The notes: generated from the sequence alone by a model not told the origin. A stretch of 64,000 bases of DNA from Heptranchias perlo (GCF_035084215.1 NC_090359.1:13950001-14014000); one strand, 5' to 3'; shown: positions 2,058 through 64,000, counted from the first letter of the stretch. Translations and numbers: made by a program.

Positions 2058-4428
2058 TCATTTGACCAATTTACCAATTAGAGTAAACGGATATTTAATC
2101 ACATTGAGCAGCTCCTCTCTGAACTTACTCTGGGTCACTGTGTAAATGGCCGTGTTCGTACAGGAACTCAGAAGCTGAAGCAGAATTCCCACTTGTTCGA
2201 AGGTTGGGAAAGGGTTATAGAAAGATCGGCGGTTAAAGCCGCCTGAAATTCGATAATATAAAAAATATACGACCGTTGTCATCCAGAGCAGGATAAAACT
2301 GCCGGATATGGCAAAAAGTAAAACGATGGACCTTCTGCGGTTCTTCATCTCAGGGTCCTTGTCATTCTCACCATTGCTGAGGTCCCGGAGGCTCCTTCGG
2401 GCCCGACTGGCCACTAAAATGCGTCTGACGGTGAGAGCATTAAACAATAAAATCAAACAGAATGGAAGCAACGGGGTTAACAGCTGTTCAATCCAAGAAA
2501 ATGCGATCCATGTGGGTAGAATATAAAACTGTGATGATACAAGACAACCCCGTGGTATATTGTTAACAGTACGGTAATGAATATACACGAAGGGCCGGGG
2601 AATGTTCTTTAAACCGAACAGCGCGCTCAAAGTCACGATAATCACAAGTGAAGTTTTCTCGGTGCAATATTTTGTTTTCAGCTTCTGACAACTAATGGCT
2701 ACAAAACGATCAAAGGTAAAAGCGACCGTTAACCAAACAGAACTGTCTGTGGCAGCAGGAGCCAGGAAGAGAATGAATCTGCAAACAGGAGTGTAGAGCA
2801 GGAAAGTGTCCCCCCAATAAAGATGAGCAATCCGATATAAGATCACATTACAGGCAATCACCAGGAGATCCGCCGTCGCCATGGCCACCAGGTAGCGAGT
2901 GATACATTTGGAGAGACCGCACTTTCCACGGGACAGGATCACAATCGCCAGCAAGTTCACTGAGAGAAAGAGAGAGACAGAAACAGTGAAATCACTAACC
3001 GGGCTGATCAATGAGCTCTCAGTTTAACCGATGTACATGGGCTGTGATTGTGTTTATTTATTGGTTTTTCCCCTTGGCTTCTGCCTCCTGTTCCGAAGGA
3101 GCAGCTCATTCTGGGAGGTTCCTTTCGGGTGACGGTGGCCCCGGGATCCCTCACCCGACAGCTGAGTCCTCACTTGTGATCCTTGAGATTAAGTTTATTT
3201 TGTCGATTCCGACACTGGGAGGTCCGCGGGGCAGGACGTCACCAACTATGAAAGTGAAAGGCGACAAGACGAGTTAAATCAGGAAATACAGACAAGGTGA
3301 CTCTAGATTTGGTTTAAATCGTAATGCGGGGGAGAAACCTAATGCCTTGACCCACACAATACCAGAGACTTTGATTTTAGAAAATACATTGAAAACACGA
3401 GCCTGGTATTGAGTTGCTGCCCGTCATCTTTCAGTAATTAATTAGATGAGGTTTCCAGTGCAGTATTGTGAATGGATCATGACACAATATGTCAAGGAAT
3501 TTAATTCTGTAACGTGCTCCAGTTATAACCAGGTCCAGTCTTTATATCTCAGCACAAGGCGTGAGAAAAACAAAGGACAGTCGGATCCTCGGAATAAGAG
3601 ATCGATCCCAGGAGCCGCGCGGAATAAGAACAAATCACCGCCAACTCTCACTCATGGTCTCCAGCTCATCCCCCTCCCGAACCAGTGTCAAGACTGGTTT
3701 CCCCACTCTCCACAATAACACACATGGACTGAAGTATACAGTCATCGTCATTCAACTAGTCCAAACAATACTTTAAACATCAAATACATCAAAAGTCCTG
3801 TGAAGCCATTTTGCTGAAATATAATTATGATCTGAGAGGAACATTTGACGGGAACACAAGATTGTACCTTCGAGTGAGGAGGACGGTTTCTGTCACATGT
3901 TTTATTTATCTGATGCGTATTCCGTTTGTTCCCTGTCCTTCTATCCTGAAGACACTGACTCATGCCGGGATACACAGCCGCAATCTGCTCTCCGGAACCC
4001 CAGGCGATCGTTCCTCGGGAAACACGACAATCTCACCCGGTCCTTCCTCACCCGATCTCCACAACAGGCGCACTTTCCACCAGGAGGCAGTGGATTACAC
4101 TCAGGACTGTGCGCCCTGCCTGTTTGACCCCTGCCTGGCCGGGGAGCACCAAGGACACATTTGGACCCCAGACTCGACAGTTCAGCACAGAGCGAGGGTG
4201 AGTTACTCGGTGCATTGACCAATGGGACAAGGATGGAAGTTTTAACTGTATCACAAAACGGTGAAGAATAACATTCCACATTTACCAGGCTCAGAGCACA
4301 AACAGCAACATAGTTAAACATTCTGTTATTTACACCGTACGTGCTGATAATGACTTACCAGGTACTCCAATTGCTGCCAGAACAGGATAATAAATGAATT
4401 CTATCTCCGTAAATCGCGACAAACGCAT
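2058..4428 (-). CDS. Class A orphan GPCR, GPR139/GPR142-like; 2 exons (4428-4359, 2959-2058), 323 aa
   Basis: Exon 1 MRLSRFTEIEFIYYPVLAAIGVP with GTAAGT donor and phase-1 acceptor ctttctctcAG; exon 2 has LVAMATADLL, FTFDRFVAI and SSCTNTAIY with 7 hydrophobic segments overall; total 972 nt in frame. Confidence 0.9.
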
Positions 4429-7959: not shown

Positions 7960-8850
7960 TTTTTTTTCTTTTTCTTTTTTTCTTCTTTTTTGTGTGTTTT
8001 TAGGCTCCCCTTTTATAAGAAGGGGGGTTTAGGGTTTGTTTATGTGCAAAAACACCCAAAGAAAACCAAAAACCAGTGTCAAATTAAGATTTTATTATTT
8101 TTGTCCAGAATGCACTCCAGCCCCTGCAGTGCCCACCGGTCGGGGAAACCGGGGAGTAAGTGAACTCCAGCTCCCCAACTCACCCGGCACCGTGCCCAGA
8201 GACCGGGAGAAGGGGCTCCCTCCACCCACACCGCCACCAACCGACCTGGCAGGTGAGACGTTTTTATTAAAACCGTCCACTAGGTCGAGCAGGTCCTGGG
8301 AGATGTCGAGCCGCGAGCGGGCGAATTCAGCCTCATCGGCCTCGCCCACCCCGGCAACCAGGACGCCCGACCCGGTGAACTGTATACTCTCCTCCGTGCC
8401 CGGATCCGCGACCCCCCTCATAGGCAGGGTCTCCCCATCCCCCCCCGGGAGGCACGGACTCGGTCTCCTCCCCCCGAGTGGTGGACGACTCCCGCCGATG
8501 GTGTGAAATGGAGGGTGGGGCCCCAGGATCCGCGTCAGGCGCCAACTCCCCTTCCACGGGGGGCCGTCCCTTTGCAGGGTTCCAGTCCGCTTCCAGGGAG
8601 TGGCGCCTTTTTTTCTTTCCGGAGGCTCGCGGAGGGAGGGTCTGCTGGGGCCCCCTCCTCCGCTCCCTCCTGACCAACGATCTGCCCGGCCTCCGTCGCG
8701 ACCACGAGATGTAGATCGGCCGCGGTCACGATCGCAGCCTCGGGCTCACTCGATTGTTCAGCATCCCGGGGACCAGCCTCCAGATGTTTGATTTTCCTCC
8801 CTGCCTTTTTTCCGCGAGAGTGCCCTCCTTCCCCCCCGGCGGAGGCCTTG
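7960..8850 (-). mobile_element. Internally deleted Tx1 copy: mid-ORF1 segment (8146-8850) fused directly to the 3' end and tail (7960-8145)
   Basis: ORF 8095..8421 matches ORF1 (FTGSGVL..SQDLLDLV); junction ccaccggtc|ggggaaacc shows microhomology; T-rich tail at 7960-8000. Confidence 0.88.
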
Positions 8851-9164
8851 TGTTGTTTTTTTTATTCTTCGAGTGTGTTCATGTGCAGTAAACAATAAAC
8901 CCAGAATATGTGTCATAATAATTTTTTTCCCTTGTGTTTTCGGCCCTCTTTCATAAGAAGGGGGGGTTTGGGTGGTTTTTTTTGTCGACTGGAAGTTCAG
9001 TCAGAATTAGGCTTTTTTTCCCCCTTTTTCCTTGTGTGTTTTTAGGCCCCCCTTTTATAAGTAGTGGGGGGGGGGTTCAGGGTGTGTTCATGTGCAATAA
9101 ACCAAAAAACCCAAAATAAGTGTCAAATAATAATTTTATTATTTCGGTCCAGGATGCACTCCAG
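8851..9164 (-). mobile_element. String of short Tx1 3'-UTR and 5'-end fragments separated by oligo(T) runs
   Basis: Pieces at ~8866-8920, 8928-8975, 8984-9012 and 9013-9164, each bounded by T-runs; they contain the ggcccccc-ttttataag-gggg 3' motif or the actggaagttcagtcag 5' motif. Confidence 0.8.
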
Positions 9165-9180
9165 TTTCGTCTAGTTTTCT

Positions 9181-9240
9181 CGTTTAGCCTCATCTGGGAC
9201 AATTGGAGTCAGTTGACTGCAGGTTGTGTATAAAAGGTGC
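9181..9240 (+). promoter_or_regulatory. ZP3-like proximal promoter: three E-boxes and a TATA box
   Basis: CATCTG 9191, CAATTG 9200, CAGTTG 9210, TATAAAA 9229-9235, ATG at 9280; E-boxes are the known FIGLA-type sites of ZP promoters. Confidence 0.65.
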
Positions 9241-9279: not shown

Positions 9280-12089
9280 ATGGGGGATTTTGTGGTGAGA
9301 GGTTTGTTCCCGGTGCTGGTGTTAGTTGGAGTGGTTTGTTACTCTGACATTTGGCAACAGTTTAGAGGGCAGAGATTTCCATGGAGAAGAGTAAAACCCA
9401 CCCCTGTGCCCCAGAGAGTCCCTTCCCCTGTGCCTCCCTTTGGTTCCCATTTCAGTGTGTCTGAGGGGAGAAGTCTGTCCCCACTGCAGACTGTGATGGT
9501 GCAGTGTGGAGAGCAGAACCTGCTGGTGAGGGTAGACATGGATTTATTTAGAACCAGGCACCTGATTAAAGCTGCTGACCTGACCTTGGGGACAGCAGGT
9601 TGTCGGCCAACTGGGATCCACTCTCAGAACCACACTGTCCTCTTTGACTATGGGCTCCATGAATGTGGCAGCAGATTGCAGGTAATGTGATTCCTCAACT
9701 CTTGCTCCAATTTCACTGTGTAGATTACTGCCCACTCAGAACTCATTAACATCGGGTGAAACTCCAGCCACTGAGGAGATCCCTGAATGAAATCTGTGTA
9801 TAAATTCTTGCCCACTGTTAAATATCACCCTGTGTGAAACTACTTCTTTATGTTGACATGTCAATCTTAGCTTTATATTTAAAAAGAACTTCAAATTGTC
9901 ACTGAGGGACTGCATCTTTCTTAAATGGGTCATTACTACTCTAACTCTGAGATTCAACTCTATTGGCCTTGAACCTTCACCTACATTTCTCCAAACCACT
10001 CTGTTCTTTTGTGCCTCAATTGATTTATCTTTTCTGTGCCTTCCTGTGGATATTCAGGCCTGTTGCCTCAACTTGTGGTCAATGAATGTTCAGTGTGGAA
10101 GTTCCTGTTGAGACTTCTCTTGAAAGATGAAACAAGTGGAATAATAATTGGGATACAATGTATTAAAGGGGAACTCCACTTTTGGTTATTACACCTGCCA
10201 ATCCCCTTGATTCCATGGATACAGGTGAGGTTTTAAAGTGATGTTGTGTTTTGTGCTCCATATCAGGGGTAACTTGAAGCCCCTTAAGGTGAAAGCTCTA
10301 TTCTATATGGGAAAGAATGCTCATCAAATCTGGCAGTGCCAATCATTTCAGGGTTTCTGACTGCAGGCCTGAAGTCCCCTGTAATACAAGGTGGACTGAG
10401 CAGAGTAACAGAGGCTGCTCCAGGCAACTTCAACCAATGGTGGAGCTGCTTCAATCATGTGTGATTTGAGGAGCAGCTAAAACCCCTCAAACTGCTGTTT
10501 AACAGGGCAGGAAAATGACCAGAAATAGCTCTTGTCCAATAAGACCAGCTCTTCATTCCTTAAGCTGATGTCTTTCAGATGGCTGGAGATTTCCTGGTCT
10601 ATACCACCCACCTGAACCATACCCCAAATGCTCGTGGATCTGTCATTGTGAGAACTAATGGAGTAGTCATTCCCATTGAGTGCCACTATTTTAGGTAAGA
10701 ATCTTTACTCTATTGCAAATGAGGTCTACAGGAGGTGCAGTTCTCTGAAGTTGTCCTGAAATTACACGCCTGTCCTTCCAGGAAGGGCAATGTGAGCAGT
10801 GACCCTATCAAGCCCACCTGGATCCCATTCAGCTCGACCAAGTCTGGAGAAGGGCTTCTGTCATTCTCACTGTGTCTTATGAATGGTATGTGATGTGTGG
10901 ATGGGGAGTGCTTTTCTGTCGTCTCCCACTGGGAGTTACACCCACTGTCTCCAACCCTTGTCCTCTTGTACTTCAGATGACTGGCTTACAGAGCGCACCT
11001 CGACTGTCTACTACCTGGGTGACCTCATTCACATTGAGGCCTCTGTTTCGATGACCAACCACATGCCCTTGAAACTCTACATTGACAGCTGTGCAGCTAC
11101 ATTGAGCCCAGGCAAGGATTCCACCCCAAGATACAACATCATTGACTACCATGGGTAAGGAGCTCTCTGCCTATTCCAGCTGGTTATGTCCCAAAGGTTC
11201 ACTTAATTCACTTTGTCTGTTTTTTTAATCTTTCTTCAGTTGCCTCCTGGACAGCAAAGCTGAGGACTCCTTTTCAACCTTTGTGTTGCCAAGAGGTGAA
11301 CGTGAGCTGGACAAACTCCAGTTTGATCTGGATGCATTCCGCTTCTTTGGAGATGACCGTTCCCTGGTAAGAGGAAGCCAAACATTGGGTTCCCCATGTT
11401 GGGAGGAGGTCACGAAATAACAACTTGTATTGAATGTGTTCCTCAGATTTTCATCACCTGTCACCTGAAAGTTGCTGCAGTGGATCGGAGAGATTCCATG
11501 AACAAAGCTTGTACTTTCCAGAATATGTAAGTTCCCTCTCTCACTCAGGGATGTGTTGTATTAAAGGGTGATGGACAACCTGGTTGATAAACTGATTCTC
11601 TGGTTTAGCTCGACCCCATTGGAAGAATTGACCAATGACGTGTGCGCCTGTTGTCATCTGGGCAACTGCAGTGCGAGGAGGGAATTCTGACTTGATTCCA
11701 GAGGAAGGAGGGATCTTGTGTATCTGGACCTGGTAGGACATTGATCCTCTCTGTGTTGGTGGTCACCCTTTACCCTCTCTAACTGGAATGTTTGATATTG
11801 CAGGGAGTGATGCTGAATTGAAGTGGGAGGGTGAAGCCTCACTTGGACCCCTGGTCATTCTGGATCCTGAAGTGTTAGAGCTGGCAACTGAGCCCCTTAA
11901 TGATGTTGAGCAAAGGATGCAGGAGAGGTCTCCAGGTGGTGAGTTGGCGGACTGCTGGTTTCCATTTTCCCCTCAATATTTCCTTCACTCACTGACCATT
12001 GGTTTCTTCTTCCGTTTTAGGTGTGGAGTCTGAGGTGGTCCTGATCCTGATCCTGGCCCTGACTGTGACCGCTGTCTCTGATCTCTGCT
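9280..12089 (+). pseudogene. zp3: ZP3-like egg-coat glycoprotein, copy 1, disrupted (exons 9280-9681, 10579-10694, 10782-10885, 10977-11154, 11240-11366, 11447-11526, 11609-~11732, ~11803-11937, 12021-12089)
   Basis: Collinear with the intact copy at 42004 in exons and introns; CGA>TGA stop at 11688-11690, 2-nt insertion ~11718, last exon cut by a Tx1 tail at ~12089. Confidence 0.88.
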
Positions 12090-12982
12090 TTTTTTTCTTA
12101 GGCCCCCCTTTTATAATTAGTGGGGGTTCAGGGTGTGTTTGTGCAGAAAACCGAAAACCAAAAACCAGTGTCAAATTAAGATTTTATTATTTTTGTCCAG
12201 GATGCTCTCCAGCCCCTGCAGTGCCCATCGGCGGAGATGGTGTCGCCATATTCCATCGAGCTACACCCACCCCAAGTCTCAGGCCGACTAATAACAAAGG
12301 CCTTGCAAAAGAAAACCTCCTCTCCCCAATTCCCACTGTGTTTGGAGAGGGGCTCCTTTGCAGGATTTTGTAAAAAAGAATATCCGTGATAGTGGGAGGG
12401 ATGGTCGAATGGGAAGGAGGGAGTCTGCAGGGGTGGGCTGCTGCAGAAGTGGGTGGAAGAGGGGCGGGGTTGCACCTTAACAGGTGGATCTTCTGGTGGG
12501 CAGGGGGAGGAGATGTCTTCCCCTAGACAGCTGGAGCTGCCCAGTCCTCCACAGATTGAAAAGTAACTTCACCCAGGCAGCTCCAGCTGTCCTGGGCCAG
12601 ACACTGGGGGGGAAACCCCCTGTTCTGTATGATCTTTCCTCCCCCTACCTTCAGTTGGTCACACTGCACCGCACCGACCTCCTCTTCCTCCCTCTGTTGG
12701 ATGGTATCGGTCAGCAGCAGTACACCCCTCACAGTGAATGGTGGTCTTCTTCTTCCTCCTTCCTCCCTGTTGGTTGTTTGTTCCTCTCCTTCTCCTTCTC
12801 CTTCTCCTGGATTCAGAGGTATACAAGCGAGGGCTGGTACTTTTCACCCTGCTCTCCACCCAGAGCTTTAACTCTGACCTCTGCTCTACTCAGCAGTATT
12901 AACTGGCAAGTTCAGTCAGGCTGATTCCTGGATGGATTGATGGTCTGTCTGAAAGACATCCAATCGTATCCCAACAGTGACT
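12090..12982 (-). mobile_element. Bipartite non-autonomous Tx1 derivative (5' UTR + ORF1 start codon fused to 3' end), ~0.9 kb
   Basis: 12230-12982 aligns with the 5' UTRs at 16830-17400 and 23570-24331; 12090-12230 is the 3' end with tail; junction gcccatcgg|cggagatggtgtcgccat. Confidence 0.85.
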
Positions 12983-17648: not shown

Positions 17649-20600
17649 TCAAAATTTTATTATCCTCGTCCAGGATGCACTCCAGCCCCTGCAGTGCCCC
17701 CCGGTCACGGAAAGCCTCAAGCGTACCGGCAGACACCGCGGAGCAACCCGCGAAAGAGGCAGACAGGCCGAGCGACCGCCCCCACGGACCGCGATCATCC
17801 TAGACCTGCGGATGGCCACCTTGGACAGGCCCAGGAGCAGGCCCACGAGGACGTCCACCGACCTGCCCGCCCCTCTCCTCACCGGGCGGCCAAAGATCAG
17901 GAGCGTGGGACTGAAGTGCAGCCAGAACTTGAGGAGCAGCCCCTCCAAATAATGGAACAGGGGCTGCAGTCTCTCACACCCAGTGTACAAATGAAAAACG
18001 GACTCCTCCAGGCCGCAGAAATCACAAGCGGCCTGGGGGTCCGTGAAATGGCGTAACCGCCGGTTGCACGCGACTGCTCCGTGCGCCACCCTCCACCCCA
18101 GATCCCCAAAGTAACACGGGAGGACCCCTGTATAGAGAGCCTCCCACTGGGGACCCCCGTCTCCGCCGGACGGCAGGATGGCACGCCAGGGCGTGTCCGG
18201 GCGAGAGACGAGGGCGAGGAAGTGGATGGTGTGCAGGAGCAGCCCGTACAGGAAATCCCTCCGCGCGGTGTGAAACGGCACGGAGGGAACTTCCGAGAGA
18301 CAGCTCAAGTTGTGAGGCGCGGCCCTCTGAGGGAGGTTCCGGGGTTTGGCGCCGAGGAGGAATTCAGTCCGAACAGGGGTCAGGTCGGACGGGATGGCTC
18401 CGCACGCTTGAGCCGCCTCCACACCCCGAGTGGAGTCAGGGCCGAGCGCCGATTTCAACGCCTGGATGGCGGCGGCCGCGTCCCCGGCACGCCACGAGGA
18501 CATGCGAGCGGCGAGCGCCCACGGCTCGAGCCAACCCGACCCACCGCCATCCAGGACGTCCCTGACTCTGGTCACCCGACCGGCCACAGCCCTCCGCTCC
18601 GTCAGCCACGAGTGGCCGAAGCCGACATCGCGGAGGAACGGATTCCCGAGCAGCGGCTCCTGCAGGACGGCCGCTACCCCCGACGGGTGAGAGCTCCGAC
18701 CGGAGGCGACCATGTTCCAGACCCTGAGCAGATTCTGGTACAAGACAGGCAGCTCCTGCAAAGACATGCGGCCGTCCACCAGCGAGACGAACAGGAGCTG
18801 CGTGTCGTAGTTCAGGCCGTGCAGCTGGCGGAAAAAGTACGTCGCCAGCGCACGCCATCTAAGAGGACGCTCATCGTACAGGTATCGCCGCAGCGTCCGA
18901 AGGCGGAAAGTTGCCACCTGGGTGCGGACGCACACCAGCCCCTGACCGCCCTCCCTAAGCGGGAGACTCAGGACTGCGGCAGCGACCCAGTGTATCCCTT
19001 TGGCCCAGAAGAAGTCGACGAACTTCCTCTGAATCTTGGCGACAAAATCAGGGGGGGGGGTCAAAGTGACCAATCTGTACCACAACATGGCGGCCACCAG
19101 CTGGTTTATGACCAGCACACGACCCCTGTAGGATAACACTCGGAGCAGTCCTGTCCAGCGCGCCAGGCGAGCGGCGACTTTGGCCTCCAGCTCTTCCCAG
19201 TTCGCCGGCCAGGCTTCCTCGGCAGGGCCGAGGTAGACTCCCAGGTACCGGAGGTGCGTGGTACTCCAGGCGAAAGCCCTGAGCTCCTCCGGCATGGAGT
19301 CCACCCGCCACTGACCCACCAGGAGTCCGGAACATTTCTCCCAGTTGATTCTTGCGGAGGACACGGCAGAGTAGACCTCTTGGCACTCGCGCATCCTCCG
19401 CAAGTCAAGGGGATCGGTGACCACGAGGAGCACGTCGTCGGCGTAAGCCGAAAGGACGACCTCCACGCCCGGCTCGCGCAGAGCCAGTCCCGACAACCTC
19501 TTTCGCAAGAGGCGCAGGAAAGGCTCCACGCAGACGGTGTATAATTGGCCGGACATGGGGCACCCCTGACGCACTCCTCTCCCGAAGCGAAGGGGCGCCG
19601 TCAAGGATCCGTGAACCTTAATCAGACACTCCGCGGCGGCGTACAGAAGTCGGATCCGGGCGACGAAATGCGACCCGAACCCGAAAGCGCGCAGAGTCCC
19701 GAATAGATACTCGTGATCCACCCTGTCGAACGCCTTCTCCTGATCCAAGGTAAGGAAGGCGACCGACAGACCAGCCCTCTGGGAATGGTGGATCAGGTCC
19801 CGGACCAGGTGGATGTTATCGTGGATCTTCCGACCCGGGACCGTGTAGGACTGGTCGGGGTGGATCATGTGGGCCAGCACGGTGCCCAGGCGAGCAGACA
19901 TCGCCTTGGCAAAGACCTTATAATCCGTGCTGAGGAGGGAGACCGGGCGCCAGTTTTTAAGGTTGCGGAGATCCCCCTTCTTAGGCAGCAGGACCACGAC
20001 CGCCCTGCGCCACGAAAGGGGCATCTCCCCGGTCGCCAGACATTCCCCCAGGACCCGCGCGTAGTCGCCCCCCAGGACGTCCCAGAAGGCCCTGAGGAAC
20101 TCCACGGTCAGCCCATCCAGCCCCGGGGACTTGCCCCTGGAGAGCTGGTGGAGGGCGCCGGTCAGCTCCGCCAAACTGAGCGGAGCGTCCAGACTGTCGG
20201 CGTCCTCCGGGCCGACCTTCGGCAGGTCCTCCCACAAAACTCTGCGCGCCTCCTCGCTGGACGGATCCGGAGAGAACAGAGCCTCGTAGAAAGATCGAGC
20301 CCGGGCCCTGACTCCCTCCGGGTCCGAGACGAGGGACCCGTCGTCGGCCAGCAGCGTAAGGAGCTGCTTACGAGCCCCCCGCCGCTTTTCCAGCGAGTAG
20401 AAGAAGGGAGAGCCGCGGTCCAGGTCCCGCAGGAGCTGGAGCCGCGACCTCACGTACGCTCCTCGGGACCCGACCAGTTGCAGGTCCCTCAGAGCGTCCT
20501 TCCTCTCCTCGTACACCTGCCGCAGGGCCGGATCCTCGGCGGCCTGACCGAGACGGGACTCCAGGCCAAGCACCTCCTGCTCCAACCGCCTGACCTCGGA

Positions 20601-21523
20601 CTCCCGCCTCTTAGTCGACCCCCTCGCGTACTCTTGACAGAAGAGGCGGACGTGAGCCTTGCCCACGTCCCACCAGAGCCTCAAGGAGGAGAAGCCTCCC
20701 CGCTTCCCTCTCCAGTCGCTCCAGAACAGACGGAACGAGTCCCGGAACCGCGCGTCCTCCAGCAGCCGGTTGTTAAAGTGCCAGTACGCGGACCCCGACC
20801 GGGCGCGGAGCAGAGCGAGCTCCATCCACACCAGGTGGTGGTCCGAGCACGACACCGGCCGGATGGAGGCCGACGGGATGCAGGAGGCGTACGCCCGCGA
20901 AACGTACAGGCGGTCGATTCTGGAGCTTCCCCCCTCCGGCCCTCACAAAGGTGAACTGGCCGGAGTCGGGATGGAGATTCCGCCAGACGTCCACCAAGGC
21001 GAAGGACCCGACCAGGTCCCTCAACTTCTCCGCCGCCGTTCGGGCACGCGCGGGACCGGAGCGGTCCCTCGCCTCGAGGGTACGGTTAAAATCCCCCCCC
21101 CCGAGGATAATGCACTCGCCGGCGTCGACGGAGTTTAGGTAAGTAGACACTTCCTCAAAGAAGCTCACTTGCTCGGCTCCGGACCAGGGGGCGTACACGT
21201 TCACCAGGTGAAGCGGCACGTCCCCGTGGCGAAGGGCTACGTGGAGCAAGCGGCCCGGCACCGGCTCCTTGACCCCCAAGATCTCCGGCTGAAAAGTCGG
21301 GGCCAACAAGATGGCCACCCCGCTCGAAACGCTGGCGAGGTGACTCAAGTAGACCCCCCCCTCCCCATTCCAGGATCCACGTGGCCTCGTCTCCCGGAAC
21401 GGTGTGGGTTTCCTGCAGAAAGCACACCGCATACTTCCCGTCCCGAAGGACCGAGAACTTGTCAAATCTACGGCGGGCGTCTCTGCCGCCGTTGATGTTG
21501 AGGCTGGCTATGGTTATCTCCAT
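17649..21523 (-). CDS. Tx1 ORF2 endonuclease/reverse transcriptase, frameshifts at ~21355 and ~20935, small C-terminal deletion ~17738
   Basis: MEITIASLNING, SDHH, KSPGLDG, NWRPVSLL, DQEKAFD, GVRQGCPMSG, YADD, CDFCGLEESVFHLYTGC. Confidence 0.93.
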
Positions 21524-38974: not shown

Positions 38975-39340
38975 GGTGTAGTCACTGTTGTAAGGTAAGA
39001 AATGCGGCAGTCAATTTGCCTCCAGCAAGGACCCAAAAACAGCAATGAAATATTGACCTGATAATCTGTTTTAGTGATGTTAGTTGAGGGATAAATATTG
39101 GTCCAGATATTGGGGAGAACTCCGCTGCTCTTCCTCGAAATAGTGCTGTGGGATATTTTACGTCCACCTGAGAGAGCAGATGAGGCCTCGATTTAATATC
39201 ACATCCAAAAGACGGCACCTCCGACAGTACAGCACTCCCTTAGTCAGCCTAGATTATGTGCTCAAGTCTCTAGATGATGACTTGAACCCACAACCTTCTG
39301 ACTCTGAGGTGAGAGTGCTGCCACTGAGCCACAGCTGACA
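38975..39340 (-). mobile_element. DeuSINE (SacSINE1/AmnSINE1-like) with tRNA head
   Basis: Reverse strand: gtggctcagtgg A-box, ggttcaagtc B-box, Deu core gtgctgtactgtcggaggtgccgtctttt..caggtggacgtaaaatatccc. Confidence 0.82.
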
Positions 39341-39770
39341 CAAATGGAGATGTTTGTGTGGGTGACATTGCATTCAGTAATCTTCACTGCCTCTCATTCT
39401 CGCTGAATATCCTGAATTTTACCAAACAACATTTCATGAGAATCAAAACTAAAAATGATGCATCCCACAATGCTTTGCCCAGTTGATGCCCCCATGCTGC
39501 CAATCCTCAGACACACCCATTCTCTATATTAGAACTGGGGACGATTCACACCATCCATGGGATGGAATTTCCATTTCTCTGACCAATGGATGGTTTGCAA
39601 ATTCACTCAAGACAACTTGATTGCTTTGAATATTGTCTCAACATCACAATCACTAACAAGTAATAAACTTGACCAGATTATGAAAAGCCACTTCAGTGAA
39701 AATATCAAATTATTATCAAATAATTCAAAGTTATGATTCCAAGAGATTGAAACAAAGAGAAACTTTCAGA

Positions 39771-41619
39771 TTTTTTTTTTTCTTTTTTTTTCACTTTCAG
39801 ATTTTTTTTTTTCCTTTTTTCTTTTTTTAAATTTTGTTAGGCCCCCCTTTTATAAGAAGGGGGTGTGGGGTGTGCTTAAATACTAAAACCAAACAAACCA
39901 AAACCAAGTGTTCAAATTAAAATTTTATTCTCCTCGTCCAGGATACACTCCAGCCCCTGCGGTGCCCACCGGTCGTGGAAAGCCTCGAGCGGACCGGCAG
40001 ACACCGCGTGCTCCATCTCCAGGGCCACCCGGGCGCGGAGCATTCCGCGGAAGAGAGGCAGACAGGCCGAGCGACCGCCCCCACGGACCACGATCATCCT
40101 AGACCTGTGGATGGCCACCTTGGACAGGCCCAGGAGCAGGCCCACGAGAACGTCCACCGACCTGCCCGCTCCCCTCCTCACCGGGCGGCCAAAGATCAGG
40201 AGCGTGGGACTGAAATGCAGCCAGAACTTGAGGAGCAGCCCCTTCAAATAATCAAACAGGGGCTGCAGTCTCGCACACCCAGTTCACAGATGGAACACGG
40301 ACTCCTCCAGGCCGCAGAAATCACAAGCGGCCTGGGTGTCCGTGAAATGGCGTCACCGCCGGTTGCACGCGACTGCTCCGTGCGCCACCCTCCACCCCAG
40401 ATCCCCGATGGAACACGGGAGGATCCCTGAGTAGAGAGTCCCCCACTGGGAACCCCCGTCTCCGCCGGACGGCAGGATGGTACGCCAGGGCGTGTCCGGC
40501 CGAGAGACGAGGGCGAGGAAGTGGATGGTGTGCAGGAGCAGCCCGTACAGGAAATCCCTCCGCGCGGTGTGAAACGGCACGGAGGGAATTTCCGAGAGAC
40601 GGCTCAAGTTGTGAGGCGCGGCCCCCCGAGGGAGGTTCCGGGGTTTGGCGCCGAGGAGGAACTCCGTCCGAACGGGGGTCAGGTCGGACGGGATGGCTCC
40701 GCACGCCTGAGCCGCCTCCACATCCCGAGTGGAGTCAGGGCCGAGCGCCGATTTCAACGCCTGGATGGCGATGGCCGCGTCCCCGGCACGCCACGAGGAC
40801 ATCCGTGCGGCGAGCGCCCACGGCTCCAACCAACCCGACCCACCGCCATCCAGGACGTCCCTGACTCTGGTCACCCGACCGGCCACGGCCCTCCGCACCG
40901 ACAGCCGCGAGTGGCCGAAGCCGATATCGCGGAGGAACGGATTCCCGAGCAGCGGCTCCTGCAGGACGGCCGCTACCCCTGACAGGTGAGAGCTCCGACC
41001 GGAGGCGACCATGTTCCAGACCCTGAGCAGATCCTGGTAAAAGACAGGCAGCTCCTGCAAAGACGTGCGGCCGCCCACCAGCGAGACGAACAGGAGCTGC
41101 GTGTCGTAGTTCAGGCCGTGCAGCTGGCGGAAAAAATACGTCGCCAGCGCACGCCATCTAAGAGGACGCTCAACGTACAGGTATCGCCGCAGCGTCCGAA
41201 GGCGGAAAGTTGCCACCTGGGTGCGGACGCACTCCAGCCCCTGACCGCCCTCCCTAAGCGGGAGACTCAGGACCGCGGCAGCGACCCAGTGTATCCCTCT
41301 GGCCCAGAAGAAGTCGACGAACTTCCTCTGAATCTTGGCGACAAACTCGGGGGGTGGGGTCAAAGTGACCAACCGGTACCACAACATGGCGGCCACCAGC
41401 TGGTTTATGAACAGCAGTCGACCCCTGTAGGATAACACTCGGAGCAGTCCTGTCCAGCGCGCCAGGCGAGCGGCGACCTTGGCCTCCAGCTCTTCCCAGT
41501 TCACCGGCCAGGCTTCCTCAGCAGGGCCGAGGTAGACTCCCAGGTACCGGAGGTGCGTGGTACTCCAGGCGAAAGGCCTGAGCTCCTCCGGCAGGGAGTC
41601 AACCCGCCACTGACCCACC
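39771..41619 (-). mobile_element. 5'-truncated Tx1 copy (last ~1.8 kb of ORF2 plus tail)
   Basis: Aligns with 17553-19321; T-tail 39771-39830. Confidence 0.95.
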
Positions 41620-41652
41620 AGAAAACTAGACGAAACTGGAGTGCATCCTGGA

Positions 41653-41959
41653 TATCCACAGGTCCAGGATGCTCGCGGTCCGTGGGGGCGGGCGCTCGGA
41701 CTGTCTGCCTCTCTTTCGCGGGATGCTCCGCGCCCGGGTGGCCCTGGAGATGGAGCACGCGGTGTCTGCCGGTACGCTTGAGGCTTTCCACGACCGGTGG
41801 GCACCGCAGGGGCTGGAGTGCATCCTGGACGAGGAAAATAAAATTTTAATTTGATGCCTGGTTTCGTTTTATTTGGTTTTTAGTACTTAAGCACACCCCA
41901 CACCCCCCCCCTTCTTATAAAAGGGGGGCCTAAAAAACACAAAAAAAAAGAAAAAAAAG
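41653..41959 (+). mobile_element. 5'-truncated Tx1 3' end, head-to-head with the preceding copy; tail ends at the ZP3 TATA position
   Basis: ORF 41669..41854 RARVALEMEH..GLECILDEENKILI; tail aaaaaaaag|ggtgctgg. Confidence 0.93.
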
Positions 41960-42003
41960 GGTGCTGGTTGATGGGTAAAGTGATAGTTGAGTTGTTTGGT
42001 ATC

Positions 42004-44856
42004 ATGGGGGATTTTGTAGTGAGAGGTTTGTTCCCGGTGCTGGTGTTAGTTGGAGTGGTTTGTTGCTCTGATATTTGGCAACAGTTTCGAGGCCAGAGAT
42101 TTCCATGGAGAAGAGTAAAACCCACCCCTGTGCCCCAGAGAGTCCCTCCCCCTGTCCCTCCCTTTGGTTCCCATTTCAGTGTGTCTGAGGGGAGAAGTCT
42201 GTCTCCACTGCAGACTGTGATGGTGCAGTGTGGAGAGCAGAACCTGCTGGTGAGGGTAGACATGGATTTATTTAGAACCAGGCACCTGATTAAAGCTGCT
42301 GACCTGACCCTGGGGACAGCAGGTTGTCGGCCAACTGGGATCTACTCTCAGAACCACACTGACCTCTTTGACTATGGGCTCCATGAATGTGGTAGCAGAT
42401 TGCAGGTAATGTGATTCCTCAACTCTTGCTCCAATTTCACTGTGTAGATTACTGCCCACTCTGAACTCATTAACATCGGGTGAAACTCCAGCCACTGAGG
42501 AGATCCCTGAATGAAATCTGTGTATAAATTCTTGCCCACTGTGAAGTATCACCCTGTGTGAAACTACTTCTTTATGTTGACATGTCAATCTTCGCTTTAT
42601 ATTTAAAAAGAACTTCAACTTGTCACTGAGGGACTGCATCTTTCTTAAATGGGTCATTGCTGCTCTCTAACTCTGAGATTCAATTCTATTGACCTTGAAC
42701 CTTCACCTGCATTTCTCCAAACCACTCTGTTCTTTTGTGCCTCAATTGATTTATCTTTTCCGTGCCTTCCTGTGGATATTCAGGCCTGTTGCCTCAACTT
42801 GTGGTCAATGAATGTTCAGTGTGGAAGTTCCTGTTGAGACTTCCCTTGAAAGATGAAACAAGTGGAACAATAATTGGGATACAGTGTATTAAAGGGGAAC
42901 TCCACTTTTGGTTGTTACACCTGCCAATACCATTGATTCCACGGACACAGATGAGATTTAAAAGTGATGTTGTGTTTTGTGCGCCATATCAGGGGTAACT
43001 TGAGCCCCTTAAGGTGAAAGCTCTAATCTATATGGGAAAGAATGCTCATCAAATCTGGCAGTGCCAATCATTTCAGGGTTTCTGACTGCAGGCCTGAAGT
43101 CCCCTGGAACAGAAGGTGGACTGAGCAGAGTAACAGAGGCTGCTCCAGGCAACTTCCACCAATGGTGGAGCTACTTCAATCATGTGTCATTGAGGAACAA
43201 CTGAAACCCCTCAAACTGCTGCTTAACAGGGCAGGAAAATGACCAGAAATAGCTTTTGTCCAATGAGACCAGCTCTTCATTCCTTAACCTGATGTCTTTC
43301 AGATGGCTGGAGATTTCCTGGTCTACACCACCCACCTGAACCACACCCCAAATGCTCGTGGATCTGTCATTGTGAGAACCAATGGAGCAATCATTCCCAT
43401 TGAGTGCCACTATTTTCGGTAAGAATCTTTACTCTGTGGCAAATAAGGTCTACAGCAGGTGCAGTTCTCTGAAGTTGTCCTGAAATTACACTCCTGTCCT
43501 TCCAGGAAGGGCAATGTGAGCAGTGACCCGATCAAGCCCACCTGGATCCCATTCAGCTCGACCAAGTCTGGAGAAGGGCTTCTGTCATTCTCACTGCGTC
43601 TTATGGACGGTATGTGATGGGTGGATGGGGAGTGCTTTTCTGTCTTCTCCCACTGGGAGTTACACCCACTGTCTCCAACCCTTGTCCTCTTGTACTTCAG
43701 ATGACTGGCTTACAGAGCGCACCTCGACTGTCTACTACCTGGGTGACCTCATTCACATTGAGGCCTCTGTTTCAATGACCAACCACATGCCCTTGAAGCT
43801 CTACATTGACAGCTGTGCAGCTACATTGAGCCCAGACAAGGATTCCACCCCAAGATACAACATCATTGACTACCATGGGTAAGGAGCTCTCTGCTTTCTC
43901 CAGCTGGTTCTGTCTCAATCGGTTCACTTAATTCACTTTGTCCCTTTTTAAATCTTTCTTCAGTTGCCTCCTGGACAGCAAAGCTGAGGACTCCTTTTCA
44001 ACCTTTGTGTTGCCAAGAGGTGAACGTGAGCTGGACAAACTCCAGTTTGACCTGGATGCGTTCCGCTTCTTTGGAGATGACCGTTCCTTGGTAAGAGGAA
44101 GCCAAACATTGGGGTTCCCCATGTTGGGAGGAGGTCACTAAATAACAACTTGTATTGAATGTGTCCCTCAGATTTTCATCACCTGTCACCTGAAAGTTGC
44201 TGCAGTGGATCGGAGAGATTCCATGAACAAAGCTTGTACTTTCCAGAATATGTAAGTTCCCTCTCTCACTCAGGGATGTGTTGTATTAAAGGATGATGGA
44301 CAACCTGGTTGATAAACTGATTCTCTGGTTTAGCTGGACCCCATTAGAAGAATCGACCAATGATGTGTGTGCCTGTTGTCATCTGGGCAGCTGTAGTGCC
44401 ACGAGGGAATTCCGACCTGATTCCAGAGGAAGGAGGAATCTTGCATCTGGACCTGGTAGGACATTGATCCTCTATGTTGAAGGTCACCTTTTACCCTCTC
44501 TAACTGGAATGTTTGATATTGCAGAGAGTGATGCTGAATTGAAGTGGGAGGGTGAAGCCTCACTTGGACCCCTGGTCATTCTGGATCTTGATGTGACCGA
44601 GCTGGCAACTGAGTCCCTTAATGAGGTTGAGCAAAGGATGCAGGAGATGTCTCCGGGTGGTGAGTTGGTTGACTGCTAGTTTCCATTTTCTCCTCAGTAT
44701 TTCCTTCACTAACCATTGGTTTCTTGTTGCTTTTTAGGTGTGGAGTCTGAGGTGGTCCTGATCCTGGCCCTGACTGTGACCGCTGTCTCTCTGATCTCTG
44801 CTTCTTTGATCGCCTTGTTCCTGTGCAGGAAACACAAGCAAACCCAGTTCAACTAG
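42004..44856 (+). CDS. zp3: ZP3-like zona pellucida glycoprotein, copy 2, intact; 9 exons (42004-42405, 43303-43418, 43506-43609, 43701-43878, 43964-44090, 44172-44251, 44334-44455, 44525-44659, 44738-44856), 460 aa
   Basis: Signal peptide, VQCGE..LHECG, IECHY, PTWIPF, DSCAAT, GCLLDS, FITCHLK, NKAC, CACC, furin site RGRR, EHP SLGPLVI, TM helix; exon phases sum to 1383 nt; AATAAA at 44870. Confidence 0.93.
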
Positions 44857-45664
44857 TTATCAAATGACCAATAAAGCAGTGACTACTTGTATCTTCTAAT
44901 GGCTGGTTGCTCATTTTTCATTATCTGGCTCCAATCAGCATGCAACAAGTGCTCAATTCTGTTAGTAACACTCCGCACTCCTCCACAGTTCCTCCTGTTA
45001 GTGAAATGGGTTTTAATGGGTCCATGTAAGTAGTTGCAGAATGGTTGGTAATAGTGTTTCCAGGCCCTGTCCAGGGATGGCTGCAGCAATGGGTGTAGGC
45101 TTGCCAGGCCCTCATTGTGCAGGTCAATGAACTCTGAAGGGACAGTGGGACTGGCCTGGGGTACTGGTGCCGGCTGGTTGACGGCCCAATCATTCCCTTG
45201 GTGTCCCGTGGCCATTGATCACTCGAATCCCACACGGGCTCCAAACTCCAGTTAAACTTTCCCTTTTGGAGCTCATTGTCCAAACACCAATAGTATTGAA
45301 AGTTGGTGGACTTGGAACTCTCCTCCAAGATTGAAGATCTCTGCCTCTGGTGTAAAGATTCTTGTTTAGTGGGGGTGTGGCTCCAGGTAGATTTCAAATG
45401 TTCAGTGTCATGGTTAATGTACACAGGGGGCAATGTTGTGCCCATTGGGTCCAGGCACAGTGAGAGTGTGAGGGACGGGGAGCCCAGCGGTTGTGATTTA
45501 ACTCTGTTGGATTTGAATTTCACCTGTCATCTTGTGAGCACAGATTGAAGTTTCTTTATCCTCAGCTTCCCCTCATGACAGGCCCTCAAGATTGTCTTGT
45601 AAGTAGTTCGTCCTATTTTCAAATTACATTGTTTATCATTCACTGTATTTGAAGGGTGGTCATC

Positions 45665-62492: not shown

Positions 62493-63127
62493 CCGGAAGA
62501 TGTACATCTGAGGGGGTCCGCAAGGTAGGTACATATCTCTGGACCCCGGGGTAAGTGTGCAAGTTGGTGACTTTGGTTGTCAGGAGGAGGGTGGTGGAGG
62601 CCAAACTTTGTCCCAAGTGACTGAGTGGCCTCCTGCAATGGGTGAGGGTCTCCCCCACCCCCAACCTGTCAAATGGACCTTTGCTGCTGCCACAGGCTGA
62701 CAGCTGCAACAGGTCCATTTGAACTGGGAGTGTTTCCCCCAGTGCGGGAAACAGTCCCAGTTTCCTTTAAAATCCCACCCCTCCTCACATAATCCCTGAA
62801 TCAGGTCAGTTAATGACCTGAACAAGCAAAATAAATACGTTCAAGTGGCATCCCGCTGGCTATAATTGCCTGTGGGATTCCCACCAGCGGGGGCTGCGCG
62901 CGCACGCCGGCGCGTTAGTGGGGAACCCGGAAATGCGTGGTCCCACTCCGGGATTTCCCGATTTTCGGGGCCCCCCCGCCAGGAACGCACCCGATAGCGG
63001 GTGCTAAAATGCTGCCCATTATATACAAGATGGGTAAAAAGAGTTAAGATACAGATTAGCCATGATCTAAATGAATGGCAGAACAGAATTGCGGGAATGA
63101 ATGATCTACTCCTGAGGGTGAGCGTGC

Positions 63128-63930
63128 AGTTCAATGGGCCCTTCCTCTCACTTGATTCAGTTCCATGGACCCTGACAGTCACTGGGGGACAGTTCCATGG
63201 ACCCTGACAGTCACTGGGGGACAGTTCCATGGACCCTGACAGTCACTGGGGTACAGTTCCATGGACCCTGACAGTCACTGGGGTACAGTTCCATGGACCC
63301 TGACAGTCACTGGGGTACAGTTCCATGGACCCTGACAGTCACTGGGGTACAGTCCCATGGGCGATGATTCTCACTGGGGTACAGTTCCATGGGCGATGAT
63401 TCTCACTGGGTACATTTCCATGGGCACCTACTCTCACTGAGGTACAGTTCTGTACACTCTGACTCTCACTGGGGTACAGTTCTGTGCACTCTGGCTCTCA
63501 CTGGGGTACAGTTCTATGGACCCTGACTCTCACTGGGGAACAGTTCTATGCACCCTGACTCTCACTGGGGAACAGTTCCATGCACCCTGACTCTCACTGG
63601 GGAACAGTTCCATGAGGACCTACTCTCTCAGTTCCATGGACATTGTCTGTCACTCGAATACTATTCTGTGGATCCTGACACACTCTGCGAACAGTTCCAT
63701 GAACACTGACACTGGGATACAGTTTCACGGACACTGACACTCACTGGGATACAGTTCCATGGACACTGACTCTCACTGGGATACAGTTCCATGGACACTG
63801 ACTCTCACTGGGATACAGTTCCATGGACACTGACTCTCACTGGGATACATTTCCACGGACACTGACACTCACTGGGATACTGTTCCACGGACACGGTCTC
63901 TCACTGGGATACTGTTCCACGGACGCTGTC
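63128..63930. repeat. 32-bp tandem satellite, ~25 copies
   Basis: Unit GTTCCATGGACCCTGACAGTCACTGGGGTACA; TTCCATGG at 63161, 63193, 63225... Confidence 0.95.
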
Positions 63931-64000
63931 ACTAATAATGAAATACCATGGATGAATAAAGAGATAAGATCAGAATTGAAACTAAAGAAAAAGGCATACA

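Follow-up and report, generated by a model that had tools for sequence, protein, structure and literature searches.

The shark DNA analysed here, a 64-kb stretch (64,000 nucleotides) from Heptranchias perlo referred to below as the window, contains two ZP3-like paralogues of the egg-coat gene family, and the second of them, copy 2, is best explained as a recently beheaded and probably silent member of a large shark ZP3-like family, a reading to which a probability of roughly 0.6 is given. According to this explanation, the endonuclease of a Tx1-like retrotransposon would have nicked the TATA box of copy 2 at TTTT/A and primed Tx1 cDNA there, a second Tx1 reaction would have been primed at another A-run, and a short piece of nearby DNA, caught up in the process, would have linked the two cDNAs, with the E-box promoter being deleted or carried elsewhere. 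The motif TATAAAAGGGGGG, now found ahead of the gene, would have arrived as the standard 3′ motif of the Tx1 element; in the absence of E-boxes, it would be unlikely to give oocyte-level transcription, and copy 2 would be at most weakly or leakily transcribed.

Copy 2 (42004..44856, + strand) has nine exons, GT-AG introns, an open frame encoding 460 amino acids, and AATAAA at 44870, and is thus coding-intact, as the original prediction held. Its product exhibits the features of ZP3, namely a signal-peptide-like start, a ZP module, a furin site, and a C-terminal hydrophobic segment; a PF23344 ZP-N domain and matches to ZP3 structures in the PDB were found, and RGRR and the hydrophobic tail are visible in the translation. 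The spliced product (460 aa) is 96.9% identical over 452 aa to a ZP3-like protein of H. perlo, an identical match being absent among the 93 proteins compared. Exon 1 of the gene at 42004 retrieved 64 proteins at E <= 1e-10 from 615 candidates, nearly all of them ZP3-like and from sharks and rays; a shark-like ZP3 protein filed under Salmonella enterica, in a 1415-bp contig, is probably contamination, and a single metagenome match to exon 1 was disregarded as weak and of low complexity. H. perlo has 56 annotated ZP3-like proteins in four clusters (38 + 14 + 3 + 1), and among the 33 listed, a signal-peptide start is present in 8 and an internal Met start in 19. The ZP3-like family looks large, with many damaged or mis-annotated members, and copy 2 is one of dozens of paralogues. 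With so many annotated proteins, there is little reason to presume that the intact copy must have a promoter. A literature search covering few subscription papers, without supplements, returned nothing on a shark ZP3 expansion, shark Tx1 tails, or a Tx1 TATA swap.

Copy 1 (9280..12093, + strand) is a pseudogene: it carries W337S and a stop at codon 363, exon 7 contains a 2-bp insertion, and exon 9 is truncated by a Tx1 3′ end (12094..12231, − strand); the rest of exon 9 and the 3′ UTR were not found within the 64-kb window. Position 12094 is a one-sided Tx1 junction, and Tx1-linked deletions or rearrangements thus recur in the window. The two copies, aligned from 9232/41956 to 12094/44807, share 94.9% identity, with 69 differences in 1466 intron positions and 8 intron indels in 1470 bp; the 443 aligned codons include 24 synonymous and 24 non-synonymous codon differences.

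The native promoter can be read on the side of copy 1. Its TATA box, TATAAAAG (9229..9236, + strand), lies 51 nt from the ATG at 9280, and shows on its lower strand TTTT/A, the motif cut by L1-type endonucleases (PMC1950540); the 2.9 kb of copy 1 contain eight TTTT/A sites, one of them the TATA box. The proximal promoter block (9181..9228, + strand) includes three CANNTG boxes (9191, 9200, and 9210), and in mouse Zp promoters FIGLA acts via E-boxes located within 200 bp, as stated in the available part of PMC1906760. This block had been predicted to be absent from copy 2, and so it is: the missing stretch spans 9181-9231, and none of its 12-mers (starts at 9181 or later) recurs near copy 2. 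Just upstream of the block lies Tx1-A (9013..9164, − strand), a short 5′-truncated Tx1 3′ end with a tail that carries TATAAAAGGGGGG (9059, minus); the exact TATAAAAGGGGG is accordingly found 170 bp upstream of the copy 1 TATA box on the opposite strand. Only 64 bp separate the end of Tx1-A (9164) from the TATA box, so that the earlier description of copy 1 as a promoter-intact pseudogene stands for the pseudogene (stop 363, exon 7 insertion), whereas its promoter is hardly intact.

The promoter of copy 1 can also be recognized elsewhere. A contig from the RNA-like run X6 (record 24, 497 nt) covers 41956-42405 and extends 47 nt further upstream; 30 nt of this extension are displayed, and the terminal 24 nt equal part of the copy 1 promoter block with one mismatch, CAGGTG included. 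This contig, from a relative, carries a copy-1-type promoter and provides independent support for the ancestral state.

The DNA upstream of copy 2 is a two-tailed bridge, in which two distinct 5′-truncated Tx1 copies stand in inverted orientation, head to head, with their 5′ ends joined and a tail on each. The left half, Tx1-B (39771..41621, − strand), is 1.8 kb long and its tail points away from ZP3; within this tail (39771-39812), a unit made up of flank and T-run is repeated, which would fit priming that slipped and began again. The right half, Tx1-C (41654..41958, + strand), is a 305-nt Tx1 3′ end with an A-rich tail; it is GC-rich, with a CpG o/e of 0.85 and a single GC box at 41685, and its start at 41654 is confirmed as native by the loose end of an X1 contig, which falls at the same position. 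Between both halves lies a templated filler of 33 nt (41620..41652, + strand), the reverse complement of 9148-9180 (+ strand), identical at 33/33 positions. Its source comprises 17 nt of the Tx1-A 5′ end and 16 nt of flanking non-Tx1 DNA, and the chance match for a given 16-mer is about 3e-5. At its Tx1-B end, the filler shares a 2-nt microhomology with the element, and a single untemplated T (41653) stands between it and Tx1-C. In an alignment of Tx1-B with Tx1-C, 24 of 302 bases differ and, because this divergence exceeds that of the ZP3 introns (69/1466), two RNAs were used. Classic twin priming of a single RNA was ruled out by the tails on both halves, which are 92% alike, and recombination between Tx1-A and Tx1-B alone by the lack of an A-type tail on either half. 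As for the far side of the bridge, the flank at 39101-39760 was rejected as a homologue of the DNA upstream of the ferritin-like genes described below, scoring 46 versus a shuffled maximum of 45; with both far flanks lying beyond the window, target-site duplications were not identified.

On the ZP3 side, the tail joins the A-run of the old TATA box, as claimed originally, although not exactly, since one extra G is present: copy 2 reads A8-G-GGTGCTGG, whereas copy 1 reads AAAA-GGTGCTGG. This G and the ZP3 DNA retained 3′ of the old TATA box occupy 41959..42003 (+ strand). The endonuclease motif TTTT/A is present at this junction, and the ZP3 DNA that was kept starts with the A-run of the former TATA box, which is what target-primed reverse transcription would be expected to leave. 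The inverted 33-nt relic shows that the Tx1-A upstream of copy 1 is older than the ZP3 duplication, that the ancestor of copy 2 once had the upstream DNA of copy 1, and that loss or displacement of the promoter was linked to these Tx1 insertions. The TTTT/A site, the relic, and the X6 promoter support both the proposal that the endonuclease cut the TATA A-run and the view that promoter loss is a derived state in copy 2. Known bridges are often one side of an inversion or translocation, so that the promoter, instead of being deleted, may have ended up elsewhere.

With regard to how the bridge arose, we infer a single event involving two RNAs. A stepwise origin is a less likely possibility, of the order of one chance in a handful: Tx1-B would have inserted in sense at the TATA box, deleting 9181-9231, would later have been inverted together with the 33-nt flank, and Tx1-C would then have been inserted next to the gene. 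In the orientation of copy 1, the end of the filler coincides with the start of the deleted block, and the 2-nt microhomology with Tx1-B resembles a 5′ junction with a target-site deletion, both of which fit such a sequence of steps. However, three or more events are needed, the remainder of Tx1-A and its flank was not found to the left of Tx1-B, and both bridge tails are of the B/C type and not of the A type.

Tx1-like DNA accounts for 15,482 of the first 45,000 bases of the window, with none in the remainder. The best match of its ORF2 is the Xenopus TX1 149 kDa protein, with 41% over 99% of the query and E 3e-94 (4 matches among 8000 scored candidates). Sister copies in the window contain an APE endonuclease (PF03372, E 1.5e-8) and a reverse transcriptase (PF00078, 5e-38), and their zinc-knuckle ORF1 gave a weak match to PF00098, below the cut-off; judging from the closest protein matches and these three domains, the elements appear to belong to the Tx1 clade. 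A sequence-specific target is a trait of many, though not all, Tx1 members; the nine Tx1 3′ ends of the window, however, end on varied A-runs without a common downstream sequence. ORF2 shows a stop-free stretch of 1097 codons (17649-20942), and the Tx1 DNA at 17700-20900 and 39950-41620 has 65-70% GC and a CpG o/e of about 0.9, versus 0.07-0.11 in ZP3 exon 1, which suggests that it is young or unmethylated. At 12094-12863 and 7961-8851, short Tx1 3′ ends are fused to same-orientation pieces of 5′ UTR/ORF1, the products being internally deleted or chimeric. In addition, six of the nine tails (1418+, 8018−, 9060−, 13285−, 17584−, and 34196−) are directly followed by short Tx1 5′-like stretches, forming head-to-tail piles, these matches being short and, in one of the comparisons, not controlled by shuffling; no tail precedes the Tx1 element whose 5′ end lies at 24265. 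The piles may reflect self-targeting or an arrangement like that of HeT-A.

The motif that faces copy 2 (41916..41928, + strand) is the conserved, TATA-like 3′-terminal motif of these elements, TATAAAAGGGGGG, and contains TATAAAAG in sense at promoter distance from the gene, 88 nt from the ATG at 42004; both this position and that of the copy 1 TATA box at 9229 had been located correctly beforehand. The exact TATAAAAGGGGG occurs six times in the 64-kb window, versus 0.01 expected by chance, every one in a Tx1 3′ end; moreover, TATAAAAG is found at the same place in seven of the nine tails, and the columns around it are among the best conserved of the Tx1 3′ UTR. The motif precedes ZP3, antisense ZP3 exon 9, unrelated flank, and other Tx1 DNA alike and, because tails carry it whatever comes after, its presence at 41916 needs no ZP3-based explanation. 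TATAAA is a variant poly(A) hexamer, and that of the motif lies about 11 nt ahead of the tail, a position that makes a variant poly(A) signal a plausible candidate role. A hairpin role found no support beyond base composition: all nine tails can fold a C-run to a G-run, yet z is only −0.01 to −1.72 versus shuffles. The tail motif gave 0 matches in the metagenome scans.

Whether copy 2 is expressed can be approached from its sequence and from contigs. The 300 bp that precede the new motif (41616-41915) contain neither an E-box (CANNTG) nor CCAAT, and the sole GC box, that at 41685, lies 230 bp upstream of the TATA-like motif. A start 25-31 nt past the motif would fall within the A-tail. Copy 2 also has the in-frame upstream ATG at 41971..41973 (+ strand) that had been pointed out earlier, GTG being the codon of copy 1, which would add 11 residues; it has T at −3, versus A at −3 of the normal ATG. 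Lying 18 nt past the start of the old TATA box, this ATG probably precedes the native start site and would not have been part of the original transcript. Its interpretation as a special adaptation was thus discarded, since a single transition creates it at a site probably not transcribed natively and other sharks possess a different upstream ATG in frame. A different in-frame extension, of 7 residues, is annotated in 7 of 60 homologues from species other than H. perlo.

The coding sequence of copy 2 carries marks that point in both directions. Codon 120 (42361..42363, + strand) encodes a private Asp (V120D) at a site where 86 of 90 homologues, as well as the solved chicken and mouse ZP3, have Val and none of the 90 has Asp; this change may harm folding. 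Other private changes at conserved sites are N207D (2/92), D371N (2/76), and P398L (0/62). On the other hand, neutral evolution of the branch ever since the duplication should, given the intron indel rate, have produced about 3.8 frameshifts, and none is seen (P of none 0.02). The open frame means that the loss is recent or that copy 2 is still expressed, and it fits continued expression or recent loss equally well. It stands as an argument against a beheaded, silent copy, as does the possibility that the consensus TATA, the GC box, and the CpG-rich DNA serve as a core promoter.

Four of nine RNA-like runs were compared as contigs, possibly derived from other species or paralogues. All four contain spliced ZP3-like contigs, those of X2 and X3 being very deep, and Tx1 3′-end sequence is abundant among the contigs; no contig crossing the Tx1-ZP3 junction was present among the pieces and loose ends listed. 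The copy 2 letter at 42362 is absent in X1, X6, and X2 (depth 40,803 in the last), and accounts for no more than 233 reads in 2.3 million (0.01%) in X3. At 44556, the runs carry G and both window copies A, a pattern shared by 13 of the 35 displayed differences checked. Since the runs may thus come from other species or paralogues, and contigs drop rare variants, these data were not counted as evidence of silence.

Leaky chimeric transcription of copy 2, that is, read-through or weak starts from Tx1 DNA with neither oocyte specificity nor a selected role, can be given perhaps a one-in-five chance. It would accord with the youth and CpG richness of Tx1-C, whose CpG o/e far exceeds the 0.11 of ZP3 exon 1, and with the abundance of Tx1 3′ ends in the RNA-like contigs; however, Tx1-C is 5′-truncated, Tx1-B upstream is directed away from the gene, and a bridging contig is missing from those listed.

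Functional promoter replacement, as put forward by the original prediction, seems unlikely. The Tx1 TATA and the GC-rich segment would in that case drive copy 2 in oocytes from about 41945, perhaps with the 11-residue N-terminal extension. The consensus TATA is in the right orientation and its distance to the ATG exceeds that of the old one by only 37 nt, the splice sites are intact and the frame has escaped the expected frameshifts, the RNA-like runs contain plenty of Tx1 3′ ends, and extensions seem to be tolerated by homologues. Nevertheless, the motif is generic to the Tx1 family, every E-box has been lost, the predicted start falls inside the A-tail, V120D affects a nearly invariant site, and rescue is unnecessary with dozens of paralogues. 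With a family-wide motif, neither E-box nor CCAAT upstream, and no transcript support found, the claim that the TATA box was functionally replaced by that of Tx1 is not supported; of the two fates originally proposed for copy 2, silencing is the likelier, and a functional TE promoter, though possible, is unsupported. Similarly doubtful is the broader idea that the Tx1 family may carry a working 3′-end TATA in the style of HeT-A, as suggested by the six of nine tails that stand ahead of Tx1 5′-like DNA, and that, by cutting TATA A-runs, it swaps host core promoters, with copy 2 as a live example. Finally, an assembly chimera between repeat copies, conceivable in such repeat-dense DNA with a high-copy gene family, is highly improbable, since the junction hallmarks (A-run tails, microhomology, an untemplated base, and an inverted local template) go beyond a mis-join.

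The window also contains three ferritin-like genes, named from their translated start, with TATA boxes at 24566, 29520, and 34542; the one exon tested gave no Pfam match. In the first and third genes, a divergent Tx1 5′ junction (24333 and 34340, versus 29301-29310) interrupts the upstream DNA, in both cases no more than about 10 bp from one homologous site. In addition, a single-exon frame for a rhodopsin-family GPCR (2058-3023, − strand; 321 codons, PF00001) and an array of tandem repeats, each about 64 bp long (63124-63933), are present.

Several known systems bear on the reading of copy 2 as a beheaded gene. From human tumours and cell models, bioRxiv 10.1101/2024.08.27.596794 and PMC11702581 describe two-tailed bridges of inverted 5′-truncated L1 copies, along with short insertions templated by local DNA. 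As in those cases, two distinct inverted 5′-truncated elements are here joined by their 5′ ends, each with its own poly(A) tail, together with an endonuclease motif at the tail on the ZP3 side, a short templated insertion from nearby, and microhomology. However, the present case involves a Tx1-clade element in the inherited genome of a shark and not L1 in human tumours or cell lines, and about 50-80 bp separate the template from the cut, versus at most 15 bp in the preprint (10.1101/2024.08.27.596794). Xenopus Tx1L (YTX2_XENLA) resembles these elements in its ORF2 with APE endonuclease and RT and its zinc-knuckle ORF1, but nicks one Tx1D site, according to the part of PMC1950540 at hand, whereas the nine tails found here lie at varied A-runs. 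In Drosophila HeT-A, as presented in the consulted part of PMC5537684, the 3′ end of a non-LTR element lies ahead of the 5′ end of the next, head to tail, as at several junctions here; its promoter activity is experimental and telomeric in that source, whereas here the TATA-like motif is known from sequence alone. With respect to the FIGLA E-box promoters of ZP3 (PMC1906760, available part), copy 1 and the relative's paralogue are alike in having CANNTG within 40 bp upstream of the TATA box, in contrast to copy 2, with zero CANNTG in 300 bp; FIGLA control in sharks is an assumption made by analogy.

Taken as it most likely is, the region upstream of copy 2 represents a tidy germline case in which a LINE bridge built from two RNAs took away the promoter of a gene, within an egg-coat family that evolves by birth and death. 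The structure of the bridge was previously described from human tumour long reads, and here the order of events is recorded by the inverted 33-nt relic. This is of modest interest, mainly for specialists in transposable elements and chondrichthyan genomes. If the 3′-terminal TATA were active, however, it would make this Tx1 family a vertebrate LINE with a portable tail promoter, which could rewire the genes whose TATA boxes it cuts.
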